Source: a virus (taxonomy: Duplodnaviria; Caudoviricetes). Taken from it: a stretch of 34,566 nt of DNA. Both the position numbers and the translations under genes were made by a program. The DNA lies in IMG/VR virus record IMGVR_UViG_3300011918_000007, positions 1-34,566 of that record; one strand, written 5' to 3'. The notes under the pieces were generated by a model. That model worked only from the letters and a program-made list of their open reading frames with translations, searched no databases and was not told where the DNA came from. Positions 3,085 through 28,962 of this stretch are shown here, one piece after another (positions within the stretch are counted from its first letter, which is position 1; each line of letters begins with the position of its first letter).

Positions 3085-3115
3085 ATAGTACATACTGCCA
3101 ATGTGTAATACGCTT

Positions 3116-3544
3116 ATGAAAATCAAGCGTGTTGACATTAGATGTTCCGCGATACAAGAAACTTTGGCATTGCTTCAACAGAAGTGTTTGCCAGGGGATG
3201 CGCCATTTGATACTAACTATGGTTACTGGTGGATAGTCTATGACGCACTTAATTTGCCGTGTGCTTTTGCTGGTCTTGTTTCCAGTGTGCGTTGGCTTGA
3301 TACTGGTTATTTGTGTCGTGCAGGCGTTCTATCTGGCTATCGTGGACACGGCATACAGAAACGTCTTATACGGGCGCGTATTCGCCAAGCAAAAGCATTA
3401 GGCTGGAACTGGTTAATTACCGATACATATCTAAACCCTGCATCCTCTAACAGTTTGATCGCTTGCGGTTTTAAATTGTTTGAGCCGAGTAAACCTTGGG
3501 GTGCTACTGGCACTTTATTTTGGCGACTTAAACTGAAGGATTGA
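3116..3544 (+). CDS. GNAT-family acetyltransferase
   Basis: Acetyl-CoA motif A (V...YRGHGIQKRLI) and N..S...L..CGF motif; start may be 3101 or 3116. Confidence 0.85.
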   Translation: MKIKRVDIRCSAIQETLALLQQKCLPGDAPFDTNYGYWWIVYDALNLPCAFAGLVSSVRWLDTGYLCRAGVLSGYRGHGIQKRLIRARIRQAKALGWNWLITDTYLNPASSNSLIACGFKLFEPSKPWGATGTLFWRLKLKD

Positions 3545-3545
3545 T

Positions 3546-4523
3546 ATGGCTGCTCCACTATGTAGCGAAAACGAATTTTTAGAGTTGTGGCATAACCATG
3601 CGTCATCTAAAAAAATTGCCGAAGTTCTTGGCACTTCTGAAAGAAAAGTTAACGCCAGACGTAGACGGATAGAAGAACGGTTAAAAATTAACCTAGACAT
3701 TCATCCTAATAGACAAAAATACGTTACCGTAAGTGTCAATCAGGCAAACAGGAATCCTGCGCGGCTACATCTTGGGGTGGAAAATGGAACAGTCATTGTT
3801 TTCTCTGATTCACATTTTTGGCCAGGTATCCACACTACTGCTTATCGTGGTTTGTTATGGGCTATTAAGGAACTGCAACCGAAGGCAGTTATTGCTAACG
3901 GGGATGTTTTTGACGGTGCTTCCATTAGCCGTCACCCTCGTATTGGTTGGGATTCAAGCCCTAGTGTCATTCAGGAACTAAAAGCCTGCGACCTAGCAAT
4001 GGGTGAGATAGAAGAAGCCGCAAAAAAAGCCCGTCACAATGTTCAGTTGGTTTGGACACTTGGCAACCATGACGCTAGGTTTGAAAACCGTCTAGCAGCT
4101 AACGCGCCACAGTACGAACAGGTTAAAGGGTTTTCCCTTAAAGATCATTTTCCTGCGTGGAAACCCTGCTGGTCATGTTGGGTGACTGAAGATGTGGTCG
4201 TTAAGCATCGTTGGAAGGGCGGCGTTCATGCTACTCACAACAACACGGTTAACAGCGGTAAAACGATGGTTACAGGCCATCTGCATAGCCTTAAAGTTAC
4301 GCCTTATGCTGACTACAACGGCAATCGGTTTGGGGTTGATACGGGGACACTAGCTGAGACAAATGGCCCACAATTTATGGACTACTTGGAAGACGCGCCC
4401 GTGAACTGGAGATCGGGTTTCGCCGTTCTGTCATTTAAAGATGGGAAACTGTTGTGGCCAGAGTTAGTTCACAAGTGGGCTGAAGGGCAGATCGAGTTTC
4501 GTGGGCAAATCATCAATGTTTAA
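3546..4523 (+). CDS. Calcineurin-like metallophosphoesterase with N-terminal HTH
   Basis: SDSH, NGDVFD, LGNHD, H and GHLH motifs; SKKIAEVLGTSERKV HTH-like segment. Confidence 0.85.
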   Translation: MAAPLCSENEFLELWHNHASSKKIAEVLGTSERKVNARRRRIEERLKINLDIHPNRQKYVTVSVNQANRNPARLHLGVENGTVIVFSDSHFWPGIHTTAYRGLLWAIKELQPKAVIANGDVFDGASISRHPRIGWDSSPSVIQELKACDLAMGEIEEAAKKARHNVQLVWTLGNHDARFENRLAANAPQYEQVKGFSLKDHFPAWKPCWSCWVTEDVVVKHRWKGGVHATHNNTVNSGKTMVTGHLHSLKVTPYADYNGNRFGVDTGTLAETNGPQFMDYLEDAPVNWRSGFAVLSFKDGKLLWPELVHKWAEGQIEFRGQIINV

Positions 4524-5342: not shown

Positions 5343-5825
5343 TTAAACTGCGTTTGGGTTGTGTGTGTGGTACTTGGCTGCTGCATTGCAATAAGCCATG
5401 TACGCATCTTCTTTGTTGTCGTATCTGCCAAGTGCAATCGTTTTGTACTTGTGCTGAATACAGGAAAACCATTTTTTTCTTTGTGAATCCCAACTTACAC
5501 CTTTGTAGCCAGACTTATTGTTTTCTTGTTTTTCTTTGTTTTCTTGATTTTGTTTTTTGCTTACAACGCGCAAATTTGAGATTCTGTTGTCTGTTGGAAT
5601 TCTGTTGATGTGGTCTATGTATTCAGGCAATTCGCCGTAAACATAAAGCCAAGCCAAACGATGTGTGAGGTACAGCTTTCCATTTATGTTGATTCTGAAA
5701 TAACCTTGGCCACAATGACCCGCTGGTGTTCCAGCATGGCAACGACCTCTGCGGACTTTGTTAATAAAAATACCAGTTTCAGGGTTGTAATCAAACAACT
5801 CTTTTAAACGCTGCTGCGTAATCAT
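5343..5825 (-). CDS. HNH endonuclease with C-terminal AP2-like domain (copy 1)
   Basis: HRLAWLYVYG, IDHINR..TDNRISNLR..S...N..N and N.SGYKGVSW...W...I..LG.Y motifs; likely start at MITQQRLKELFDY. Confidence 0.9.
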   Translation of the reverse strand: MITQQRLKELFDYNPETGIFINKVRRGRCHAGTPAGHCGQGYFRININGKLYLTHRLAWLYVYGELPEYIDHINRIPTDNRISNLRVVSKKQNQENKEKQENNKSGYKGVSWDSQRKKWFSCIQHKYKTIALGRYDNKEDAYMAYCNAAAKYHTHNPNAV

Positions 5826-5857
5826 GATGAACCTTTCATGTGTGAACCTGTTTAAAG

Positions 5858-5906
5858 TTAGCAAGGGGGAGGTTCAATCCCCCCTGTCCTCCGTCGAGTT
5901 AGCTAA
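5858..5906 (-). ncRNA. Structured leader RNA, three-way junction (copy B)
   Basis: UUAGC-U-AA/UU-GCUAA, CUC/GAG and GGGGGA/UCCCCC stems; loop UGAACCU complementary to two downstream AGGUUCA sites. Confidence 0.6.
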
Positions 5907-5919
5907 AAATCATTTTATC

Positions 5920-6171
5920 CTAAAAAGGAATCGAATCGTCTGGAAAGTCGTTATGTGATTGTTTAGATGGAATACTTGGCGCAGCATCTCGCGGAGTAAA
6001 AAGGTAACTCCAACCGTTCCAGCCACCATCTACTAATGGCACAGAATCCATCTTCATCATCAAACCTTTCTTGGTTTCAATCACGCTGCCGATGCGCTGA
6101 TAACGGATTTTTTCTTGTCCGTCTTTTTGGTATGTGCCAGCGCGAACAGTCACTTCATAAATTGTTGCCAT
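5920..6171 (-). CDS. Small SSB-like protein
   Basis: Beta-rich core plus acidic DFPDDSIPF tail typical of SSB C-termini; located in recombination operon. Confidence 0.6.
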   Translation of the reverse strand: MATIYEVTVRAGTYQKDGQEKIRYQRIGSVIETKKGLMMKMDSVPLVDGGWNGWSYLFTPRDAAPSIPSKQSHNDFPDDSIPF

Positions 6172-8527: not shown

Positions 8528-8590
8528 AACAAGGCTAGGTGCGAAGTCATGAGCGCACCGAAAAGAGTTACCCGTTCTCCTGCCATTGTT
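8528..8590 (+). ncRNA. Structured leader RNA, three-way junction (copy A)
   Basis: GGC-U-AG/CU-GCC, GUGCG/CGCAC and GAG/CUC stems; ACCCGUU loop complementary to AACGGGU at 8600-8606. Confidence 0.6.
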
Positions 8591-8625
8591 TCTTTTTCAA
8601 ACGGGTTGTTAAAAACTGGAAAACA

Positions 8626-9405
8626 ATGCACTACTACACATTTAATGTGGGTGACTACCGCAAGGATACTGGTCACCTTACAACGCTTGAGCATGGCATT
8701 TATCGCCAATTGCTTGATTGGTACTACCTAGACGAAACACCAATACCCAAAGAAACCCAAACGGTTATCAGGCGGTTACGATTGGGTTCTGATTCGGATA
8801 TTCAATCACTACAAAATGTGCTAAATGACTTCTTTGTTTTGCAAGACGATGGGTATCACCAAGGCCATTGCGATGTGGTTATTGCCAAGTATCACGAGAA
8901 CGCAGACAAGAACAAGGTCAACGGGAAGCTAGGTGGAAGGCCAAAGAAAACCCAGTCGGTTATTTTGGGAAACCCAACTGAAACCGAATCAAAAGGCAAC
9001 CACCAACCAATAACCATTAACCAAGAACCAAAGGTAAAGACGCAGCGCGGTTCCCGCCTGCCTGCCGATTGGTCTTTGCCAGATGATTGGAAAGAATGGG
9101 CAGAGCAAGAACGATCAGACCTAAACATCAAGACGGTGGCAGACAGTTTTAAAGACTTTTGGATTGCCAAGCCTGGAGCTGGTGGCGTTAAGTTGGATTG
9201 GCAAGCAACATGGCGCAACTGGATACGCAGTCAATCAGCGCCCAAGACTTTTGCCAACAAGTTTGATGTAGCGCACATTACTACACCAACACCGCCAAAC
9301 CAAGACGCTGCATTGCGGAAGATTGAAGAACATAGAAAAAATGCTGTGCCGCCTTCGTTAGAAGTGTTGGCTAAATTGGCAGAATTACGAAAGGCGGCGC
9401 AATGA
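8626..9405 (+). CDS. YdaU (DUF1376)-family replication initiator (lambda O-like)
   Basis: MHYY.F.VGDY..DT.HL..LEHG.Y..LLD.YY N-terminus; NGKLGGRPKK; C-terminal F.DFW....KLDW.ATWRNW domain. Confidence 0.88.
   Translation: MHYYTFNVGDYRKDTGHLTTLEHGIYRQLLDWYYLDETPIPKETQTVIRRLRLGSDSDIQSLQNVLNDFFVLQDDGYHQGHCDVVIAKYHENADKNKVNGKLGGRPKKTQSVILGNPTETESKGNHQPITINQEPKVKTQRGSRLPADWSLPDDWKEWAEQERSDLNIKTVADSFKDFWIAKPGAGGVKLDWQATWRNWIRSQSAPKTFANKFDVAHITTPTPPNQDAALRKIEEHRKNAVPPSLEVLAKLAELRKAAQ
8949..9032. repeat. Iteron-like repeats, probable replication origin
   Basis: AACC-N5-GGTT at 8949; AAACC at 8970 and 8981; five tandem AACCANN 7-mers at 8998-9032. Confidence 0.6.
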
Positions 9406-10070
9406 AAGTTTTGCCAATCAAGCCTGAAGAAGCAGAGCCTTGGTTGCTCAAGAAGCATTACGCAAAGCGTATGTGTCCAATCAGCTACGCTTTTGGTGTT
9501 TACCGTGACACGCAATTGATTGGCGTTGTGACTTACGGAACGCCAGTAAGCAGCGCCTTGCGTGTTGGTGTTTGTGGTGAAAAATGGATAGAAAATGTAA
9601 TTGAATTAAATCGGCGTTGTTGTGAAAACGAAAAAAACGTTGCTTCAATACTTGTTGGCAGGTCTTTAAAAATGTTGCCAAAGCCTTCGGTAGTTGTTTC
9701 CTACGCAGATACAGAGCAAGGTCACGTTGGTTATGTGTATCAGGCCACAAATTTTGTTTATACAGGTCTAAGTGCTAAACGAACAGATTGGAAACTTAAA
9801 GGCATGGAGCATTTGCATGGCGCAACTGTGGCAGATATGAGCCGAGGCCAAGAAAACCGCGCTCAATGGATGCGTGACAAATTTGGTGATGACTTTTACT
9901 TAGAAGACAGGGCAAGAAAACACCGCTATGTGTATTTTGTTGGAAGCCAAAAACAAAAGAAAGCCATGCTGTCAGACCTGAACTACGGCCTTGAATCGTA
10001 TCCAAAAGGCGACAGCAGACGTTATGACGCTGGCGGTGTGGTTGCAACACAAGAACTTTTATTTGTATGA
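9402..10070 (+). CDS. Mom-like adenine-modification protein (GNAT fold)
   Basis: KKHYA, AFG.Y....LIGVVTYG.P, ELNR, SYAD..QGHVG.VYQATNF.YTG and KHRYVYF motifs. Confidence 0.8.
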   Translation: MKVLPIKPEEAEPWLLKKHYAKRMCPISYAFGVYRDTQLIGVVTYGTPVSSALRVGVCGEKWIENVIELNRRCCENEKNVASILVGRSLKMLPKPSVVVSYADTEQGHVGYVYQATNFVYTGLSAKRTDWKLKGMEHLHGATVADMSRGQENRAQWMRDKFGDDFYLEDRARKHRYVYFVGSQKQKKAMLSDLNYGLESYPKGDSRRYDAGGVVATQELLFV

Positions 10071-13205: not shown

Positions 13206-13283
13206 AATAGCGAAACCTCTGCAACCGTGAAGGGATTGCAAAGGCTTCTAACCAAACAACTGAAAAGGAGTTGAAATGGCTGA
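13205..13283 (-). ncRNA. Predicted cis-antisense RNA to HNH copy 2
   Basis: Minus-strand GTGAAG-N17-TAAAAT promoter; 15-bp stem fully paired only on minus strand; covers SD and ATG. Confidence 0.5.
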
Positions 13284-16659: not shown

Positions 16660-16731
16660 TGCAAAAAGCCTAGAAGCGGGAGCTTGCTAGGCTTTTCTAA
16701 CCACTTGATAAAGGAGCTATCGCATGGGTGA
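16660..16731 (-). ncRNA. Predicted cis-antisense RNA to HNH copy 3, ending in hairpin terminator
   Basis: Minus-strand -10 TAAAAT at 16737-16742; AAAAGCCTAG/CTAGGCTTTT hairpin at 16664-16696. Confidence 0.45.
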
Positions 16732-28438: not shown

Positions 28439-28962
28439 GTGTAGTAATCAACGGCTCCGCAGGGGTCACAGTCAACTCAGGTGCTGTTCTTGGCATCACT
28501 TTAGGCACAGCCGTAGCAAGCACTTCTGGCACAAGCATTGACTTTACGTCTATCCCTTCTTGGGTAAAACGAATTACTGTGATGTTTAGTGGTGTGAGTA
28601 CAAGTGGAACTTCTATTGTCCAAATCCAACTTGGCGCGGGTTCTGTAACAACAAGTGGTTATTCTTGTATGGGGACACAACTGTCAACTTCAGCAATTGC
28701 TGGCGCAACAGCAACAAGCGGTTTTGTTTTAGGGTCTGATTCAGTCGCGACAGATGTAAGTTATGGGCAAGTTGTTGTTTCAACTTTAGGCTCAAATATT
28801 TGGGAAGGTACTGGCTCAACGTATAGCGGAGCCACAGGGTCAAGAACACGATTTACAGCAGGCGGCATTGCGCTTGGCGGCACTTTAGACCGTGTACGCA
28901 TCACCACAGTAAACGGCACAGACACCTTTGACGCTGGTTCTATTAACATCTTGTACGAGTAA
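28435..28962 (+). CDS. Fibre/receptor-binding module
   Basis: STSGTSIDFTSIPSWVKRITV...LDRVRITT.NGTDTFDAGSINI.YE beta-sandwich. Confidence 0.7.
   Translation: MSVVINGSAGVTVNSGAVLGITLGTAVASTSGTSIDFTSIPSWVKRITVMFSGVSTSGTSIVQIQLGAGSVTTSGYSCMGTQLSTSAIAGATATSGFVLGSDSVATDVSYGQVVVSTLGSNIWEGTGSTYSGATGSRTRFTAGGIALGGTLDRVRITTVNGTDTFDAGSINILYE

Follow-up and report, generated by a model that had tools for sequence, protein, structure and literature searches.

What does a three-way-junction RNA do in front of a small phage endonuclease gene, when its hairpin loop is complementary to two tandem copies of one heptamer lying at the ribosome-binding region of that same gene? The question is raised by a linear virus record of 34,566 bases (hereafter the window, i.e., the whole stretch of DNA that was analysed), which contains ERF and YqaJ recombination genes, a Cro-like gene, a DUF1376 replication gene and three HNH_3 genes. 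One of these HNH_3 genes combines matches to PF13392 (E 1.5e-16) and PF00847 (E 3.7e-09) with PHROG 99, and in the Pfam scan this pair of domains (HNH_3 and AP2) fits free-standing HNH-AP2 homing endonuclease genes. The RNA under study (copy B, or leader B) is located on the minus strand, with the stop codon of an 83-aa gene (5920) on one side and the HNH_3-AP2 gene on the other. The 83-aa gene, downstream of the ERF and YqaJ genes, displayed neither a Pfam nor a PHROG match; its product may be SSB-like, as suggested by an acidic tail ending in IPF, a feature of SSB tails. Note that the other two HNH_3 genes of the window have a different leader, common to both (13213-13279 and 16666-16726, plus strand), in which a long hairpin is followed by UUCUAACCA and then by a small hairpin directly before the AUG, with an SD-like AAAGGAG partly in its loop; these leaders gave no Rfam match at the gathering level. 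The window also carries GNAT acetyltransferase and metallophosphoesterase genes (3101-4523, plus strand) after the predicted lysis region.

When the sequence was read again, the fold, the -10 box and the two AGGUUCA sites described in the initial annotation were all found in their places (Table 1), with several details redrawn. The core stem of P1 was kept, but the AA/UU pairs that had been added to it are not conserved, many relatives having CU at that position, and UAA and YU are therefore treated as junction strands. P3 was likewise kept as a stem, of 5 bp with a 9-nt loop instead of the 6 bp first drawn, since the supposed closing A-U pair is A.A or A.G in 4 of 18 aligned rows. Site 2 does lie next to the start codon, although 2 nt separate its end from the ATG where direct contact had been described. 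In addition, folding of B revealed a fourth hairpin (P4), absent from the earlier description, which holds site 2 in its loop and the AUG start codon in the 3′ arm of its stem; site 2 also overlaps a weak SD-like AAGG (5835-5832). The two sites of B are identical and spaced by 15 nt, and the computed duplexes of the loop with site 1 (-8.9 kcal/mol) and with site 2 (-9.0 kcal/mol) are treated as equal. The minus strand of the window contains the AGGTTCA 7-mer five times, and finding two occurrences within 40 nt has a rough P of 2e-6, a figure to be taken as a rough guide because the test was chosen after the fact. Transcription is predicted to start directly 5′ of P1, while the sigma-70 scan at B returned no full promoter and no consensus -35. 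RNAfold applied to B extended P3 and dropped P1 (z = -1.5), so that the three-way junction does not emerge from thermodynamics alone and P1 depends on covariation. A mini-ORF starting from the AUG in the 5′ arm of P4 was also considered and rejected: in relatives it runs on or is in frame, and in the window its stop lies over the start codon.

Table 1. Positions of the elements of leader B, of its gene and neighbours, and of copy A in the window
Feature	Position	Strand	Remark
Optional cassette (promoter, leader and nuclease)	5343..5919 (about)	-	between 83-aa gene stop and next intergenic hairpin
HNH_3-AP2 endonuclease gene, free-standing, homing-endonuclease type, 160 aa	5343..5825	-	Pfam and PHROG
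ATG of the HNH gene	5825-5823	-	
83-aa gene	5920..6171	-	upstream of cassette
-10-like box TAAAAT	5912..5917	-	T, A, A, T invariant in 18 rows
Three-way junction P1-P2-P3, int-alpA-type core	5858..5906	-	junctions UAA / GACAG / UU
P1, UUAGC / GCUAA	5906-5902 / 5862-5858	-	
P2, CUC, loop GACG, GAG	5898-5896, 5891-5889	-	
Junction GACAG	5888-5884	-	
P3, GGGGG / CCCCC	5883-5879 / 5869-5865	-	
P3 loop, AUUGAACCU	5878-5870	-	pairing seed 5876-5870
Site 1, AGGUUCA	5843..5849	-	8 nt 3′ of P1; predicted pseudoknot (parking) partner
Site 2, AGGUUCA, in P4 loop	5828..5834	-	predicted kissing partner
Hairpin P4, CAUGA 5840-5836 / UCAUG 5827-5823, 8-nt loop	5823..5840	-	-3.6 kcal/mol
Copy A, int-alpA-type leader before DUF1376 replication gene (ATG 8626)	8528..8628	+	RF02996, PF07120

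Relatives of B were collected in two ways. The HNH search yielded 34 loci, for 27 of which the upstream DNA was inspected; the seven closest HNH relatives (79-93% identity) carry the same leader as B, and L012, L013, L015 and L016 carry a three-way leader with a different loop code. Two DNA patterns added further relatives, with 14 of 16 and 21 of 33 matches being true leaders, the other matches (2/16 and 12/33) being left out as pattern matches without a leader. Over 18 distinct aligned rows, P1, P2, P3 and the helix between the loop and site 1 were paired in 99.2% of the cells, and seven pairs were changed on both sides: one in P1 (A-U to G-C in 6/18 rows), one in P2, three in P3 and two in the loop-site 1 helix. 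The latter helix was paired in 100% of its cells and showed a C-G to U-A change in 7 of the 18 rows; the loop-site 2 helix was paired in 97.5% of its cells and showed the same change in five rows, and two further rows, mis-gapped by the aligner at site 2, retained this site when parsed separately. Thus, a single loop change is matched at both sites in the B-type rows, and it may correspond to one substitution and perhaps to one or two events only. P4 is mostly invariant in these rows and folds in the window as well as in all 17 B-type nuclease leaders parsed. Loop-target covariation, which had been proposed as a check on the structure, was accordingly present at both sites, in these rows and in the family counts given below. 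The blastn search of B against annotated phages gave no match and the B-type core pattern was absent from species-representative genomes, so that there is no cultured host at hand.

Is this RNA a new class, a status that, according to the initial annotation, an Rfam match would remove? At the gathering level, Rfam gave no match anywhere in the window, and comparison of B with RF02996 (int-alpA; gathering cut-off 35.8 bits) reported no match even at E up to 10, while the close relatives of B reached 25.6-31.1 bits, i.e., below the cut-off. B displays the int-alpA architecture (a three-way junction, a 5-bp P3 and a loop of about 9 nt, with all three stems covarying) together with a GACG-like P2 loop. 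It differs by its short P1, by a 3-bp P2 without the closing G-C and by its GACAG and UU junctions; the junction bases are UAA, GACAG and UU in B and UA, G-C, GAAAA and CU in the family. The core appears to fall within the int-alpA range, since L131, a leader with the core type of B (UAA, 3-bp P2 with GACG, GACAA), scored 49.0 bits against RF02996, and L285, which has the UAACUCGACGG of B, scored 54.2 bits. Moreover, the loop code of B was found on canonical cores above the cut-off (L157, 42.8 bits; L290, 40.6 bits; L301, 41.8 bits), and a model built from B-type rows recovered the canonical-core leader L104 at 41.2 bits, in one of five records tried. Based on the L131 score, the shared loop codes and the L104 match, we treat B as a divergent member of the catalogued and functionally unexplained int-alpA class, although it fails the score test. 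Novelty as a class is consequently not supported: the Rfam model is matched by copy A, by the relatives of B and by its core, though not by B itself.

The int-alpA motif reportedly first came from a 2017 survey by Weinberg, and its Rfam type is ‘Gene; sRNA’. The name implies a place between integrase and alpA genes, which does not hold for B, located before an HNH gene; nor does this name define the class, since members above the cut-off also precede other genes. The Rfam model has 71 positions and ends at about site 1, with site 2 and P4 lying beyond it. The consensus tail of the model (uaAgGG) is complementary to its own loop (CCuUua) and corresponds to site 1, so that the motif as catalogued probably includes the site 1 pairing already, in implicit form. 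The term ‘alpA’ does not appear in the main text of PMC5737381, the supplement of which may already draw the site 1 pseudoknot or discuss the gene context; a literature search that covered the main text of this paper found no functional study of int-alpA. In the relevant passage of one report, int-alpA is only listed as found in 2 of 5 STEC genomes, without a test there (PMC12370729), and ‘int-alpA’ has also been used as a name for a gene order (PMC13612085).

We now turn to the canonical members of the family, whose exact 18-base form is present in about 1000 stored viral stretches (an estimate) and whose leaders occur, according to record titles, in Pseudomonadota, Planctomycetota, Acidobacteriota, Bacillota and Bacteroidota, among many phyla. 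The exact 18-base pattern provided a viral set of 120 loci (101 distinct, of which 10 failed the parser and 91 were scored), and a 21-base form provided a genomic set of 100 loci from many phyla (96 distinct, 6 failing the parser and 90 scored). Two non-overlapping perfect complements of at least 5 nt to the own loop of the leader, within 60 nt, were present in 71 of the 91 viral and 57 of the 90 genomic leaders. Swapping loops between leaders gave means of only 1.6 (viral) and 2.2 (genomic), with a maximum of 6, and upstream DNA gave 1 and 0, respectively. The sets contain 54 and 59 distinct loops, which implies many independent loop changes, and, according to these counts, two sites are a family rule in canonical int-alpA leaders. 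The geometry is also regular: the distance from the first base of the P1 3′ strand to that of site 1 is 13-17 nt in 67/76 leaders, and the site ends are 12-15 nt apart in 58/76. Both sites use overlapping loop bases in all 76 leaders, and pairing with one would thus exclude pairing with the other. A -10-like box directly 5′ of P1 was found in 52/91 viral leaders (2 in the control window) and in 29/90 genomic leaders (4 in the control window).

The fourth hairpin also extends beyond B. Among distinct rows in which each of the two position windows contained a site (76 viral and 74 genomic), site 2 was enclosed in the loop of a hairpin of negative energy in 69/76 viral and 58/74 genomic leaders, compared with means of 33.6 and 38.3 (maxima of 45 and 47) when the 5′ linker was shuffled, and compared with only 11 viral and 19 genomic leaders in which site 1 was enclosed in this way. 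P4 starts at -1 to +2 nt from the end of site 1 in 62/69 leaders. The initial annotation had placed the RNA where it could gate translation, and this agrees with the family, the best anti-SD match overlapping site 2 or the 3′ arm of P4 in 61 of 63 members.

Within the window, a model built from B found no further copy, and the related copy A, before the replication gene, scored 30.8 bits against RF02996 (E 0.0013), the cut-off of 35.8 not being reached. As first described, copies A and B share their architecture and differ in loop code. Copy A has one perfect 7-nt site (8600-8606) and a second one that is only mismatched (about 8614-8619), the second site being weak in similar replication-gene leaders too. 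Cross-pairing of copy A with the sites of B gave -3.8 and -4.9, versus -10.0 and -9.0 for own pairing. Differing loop codes within one genome were also noted by eye in G005, G010, G016, G019, G036, G046 and G049. Most multi-copy genomes differ in this respect from one provirus, whose two leaders (G026:C1:22247-22313 and 28562-28630) have a common loop code and common targets (GCCUA / UAGGC). Tandem pairs of int-alpA-type leaders, ~500-600 bases apart, with different loop codes and one member having the core type of B, were observed in the gut-phage contigs L103, L131 and L143 (about 218 and 701, leader strand) and in G019, G032 and G042. Directly 3′ of the replication gene led by copy A lies a Mom-family DNA modification gene (9402-10070, plus strand; PF25680, E 2.4e-40).

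Relatives of the 83-aa gene indicate how leader B travels. Among 68 scorable loci (3 of 71 were too short and were left out), 11 had the leader and the nuclease, 57 had neither and none had one alone. The empty loci pass straight from the stop codon into the hairpin that, in the window, comes after the HNH stop, and these junctions delimit a cassette of ~5919-5343. Thus, the putative promoter, the leader and the nuclease come and go as one cassette, which some related phages have and others lack at one fixed site, as described for free-standing HNH-AP2 homing genes. The B-type leader was also found before a second, Cys-rich endonuclease type (PHROG 2340). Concerning the hairpin 3′ of the cassette, it is a conserved intergenic element (5340-5290, minus strand; also L206, L209, L222 and L232, just past position 1750), which in relatives is longer, its constant ends GAAAGCGGAUG ... 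GCAGCGAGUA flanking an insert that varies freely, with a possible loop-E-like AGUA/GAA core; five loci with this hairpin gave no Rfam match at E 0.5. In L054, L059, L076 and L078, the nuclease cassette is located after the intergenic hairpin and not before it.

The leader is not reserved for nucleases, as its initial reading as the gate of a toxic nuclease would have it. For canonical leaders, 68 of the 99 downstream genes extracted were scanned, giving 16 DUF1376 replication proteins, 5 HTH_36, 7 with a nuclease domain (HNH, HNH_3 or weak GIY-YIG), 2 Rha, 2 helicases, 1 lambda P and 1 DUF551, the others being without assignment.

Three stems, two alternative loop pairings, a P4 over the ribosome site and co-transfer with the gene can be read from the sequences, and copy B, an int-alpA-type RNA at the predicted 5′ end of the HNH message, likely acts in cis as a two-state translation brake. 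According to this mechanism, the P3 loop of the nascent RNA would pair first with site 1, forming a pseudoknot; with the loop parked there, P4 would be left weak and the SD exposed in the P4 loop, so that ribosomes would load (open state). A shift of the loop by ~15 nt would then bring it into a kissing contact with the P4 loop, which would clamp the hairpin and put an end to initiation (shut state). Such a device would work as a timer or as an equilibrium throttle without a ligand, allowing few protein copies per message, and a low output of this kind would be useful for nucleases, replication initiators and antirepressor-type proteins. Which of the two states is open is something that we infer. 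Base pairing alone does not account for the push toward the shut state, since the duplex at site 1 is the stronger one in 40/76 leaders and the weaker one in 20 (means of -7.8 versus -6.9 kcal/mol), and this push would need kissing or stacking energy beyond the computed duplexes.

The initial annotation had left the choice between a pseudoknot switch and a processed antisense RNA, and the near-fixed distance to site 1 favours the cis switch over the latter. An antisense action in trans, in the style of IsrK or C4/CI, nevertheless deserves attention, although we consider it unlikely: a short RNA ending after P1 would keep its loop free and, on full-length messages whose own loop is at site 1, occupy site 2; output would then track transcript number. 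This would account for the two copies of one target and for the display of a target in a hairpin loop, and it agrees with the sRNA type given by Rfam, with the loop codes that differ between copies of one genome (A and B, and the seven genomes compared by eye) and with the short and long isoforms acting on each other that are known for IsrK (PMC4825925). However, a run of four T after P1 was found in only 24/91 leaders and is absent from B, where no terminator-like site was found either; the two G026 leaders have one code between them; and the fixed spacing corresponds to a cis geometry, at least for site 1. An intrinsic terminator after P1 as a general feature was rejected on the same count.

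The conserved junction could also bind something, which would turn the two-state brake into a gated switch, with a host or phage protein or a small molecule choosing between site 1 and site 2 and the gene answering to the stage of infection or the state of the host. We regard this as improbable. The same junction indeed recurs in phages and in many phyla, with no such constraint on the loop code, and the J2/3 hexamer is GAAAAG in 65/101 leaders (with its first three bases fixed by the search pattern); yet the junction tolerates change, with 17 other hexamers in the remaining 36/101 and UAA/GACAG/UU in B, P2 ranges from a 4-nt loop up to a long hairpin, and the downstream genes have no common metabolic theme. 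The opposite polarity, in which pairing with site 2 would activate by holding the region accessible to ribosomes, as in repZ, and site 1 would be the off state, appears very unlikely to us. A pseudoknot between a loop and the RBS region does activate repZ (PMC8383071) and site 1 is usually the stronger site, but site 2 reaches into the SD or up to its edge, either the SD or the start codon lies within P4 (the stem holds the AUG in the case of B), and pairing at site 1, which overlaps the 5′ arm of P4 in 13/69 leaders, would weaken P4 there. Finally, a self-cleaving ribozyme or an RNA cofactor of the nuclease, as a compact three-way junction with a pseudoknot beside a nuclease gene might evoke, is hardly credible, given that no Rfam ribozyme family was matched, that this RNA is also found before genes for replication proteins, helicases and Rha-type regulators and that the second site is tied to the RBS.

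The preferred reading, a translation brake in cis, can be compared with several known systems. The C4 RNA of P1 and the CI RNA of P4 are small structured phage RNAs placed 5′ on the message they control, with loops as specificity codes; the Rfam models of the C4, CI and IsrK type gave no match for B. IsrK of Gifsy-1 is of the same small structured kind and has the same 5′ placement on its message (PMC4825925). In contrast to these RNAs, a single loop of B matches both targets, which are found no more than 35 nt downstream. Structures hiding the RBS have a precedent at phage homing endonucleases: T4-type genes (I-TevI, segB, Aeh1 mobE) combine an own promoter with an RNA structure over the ribosome site, and their late promoter starts inside the hairpin, which then cannot form (PMC2988022). 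In B, transcription is predicted to begin before any part of the leader, and a loop able to pair with either of two partners would exert the control. The kinetic translation window has its own precedent in the maturation leader of MS2, a multi-arm 5′ leader in which the anti-SD stretch is at first kept from the SD, trapped at another place, and closes on it afterwards, leaving a short translation window for a low-copy protein (PMC4615214); the likeness is a functional analogy only; MS2 is an RNA phage and uses a long-distance helix and not loop-loop kissing (PMC4615214). In the IncI repZ pseudoknot, pairing of a hairpin loop near the RBS controls translation, also of a replication protein, but there the pairing activates, a separate antisense RNA blocks and there is no tandem target (PMC8383071).

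With the motif class already catalogued, what is new here is a test of the two-site rule, repeated in a second set of leaders, together with hairpin P4 and the limits of the cassette as drawn from empty loci. The two-site rule and P4 make an orphan motif a directly testable switch, for which B is a clean test case owing to its identical sites and to an AUG buried in the hairpin, and they suggest self-carried dosage control for selfish nucleases and replication starters. As a broader and tentative proposal, which we hold to be possible rather than probable, int-alpA would be a portable and recodable translation timer of mobile DNA, in which the loop first parks in a pseudoknot and then slides into a kissing clamp and in which short copies might possibly fill site 2 in trans, each element counting its own transcripts by a private code of 5-7 bases. 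If this timer reading is true, it would mean a regulatory device shared across phyla, dozens of orthogonal codes and a function for an orphan Rfam family.
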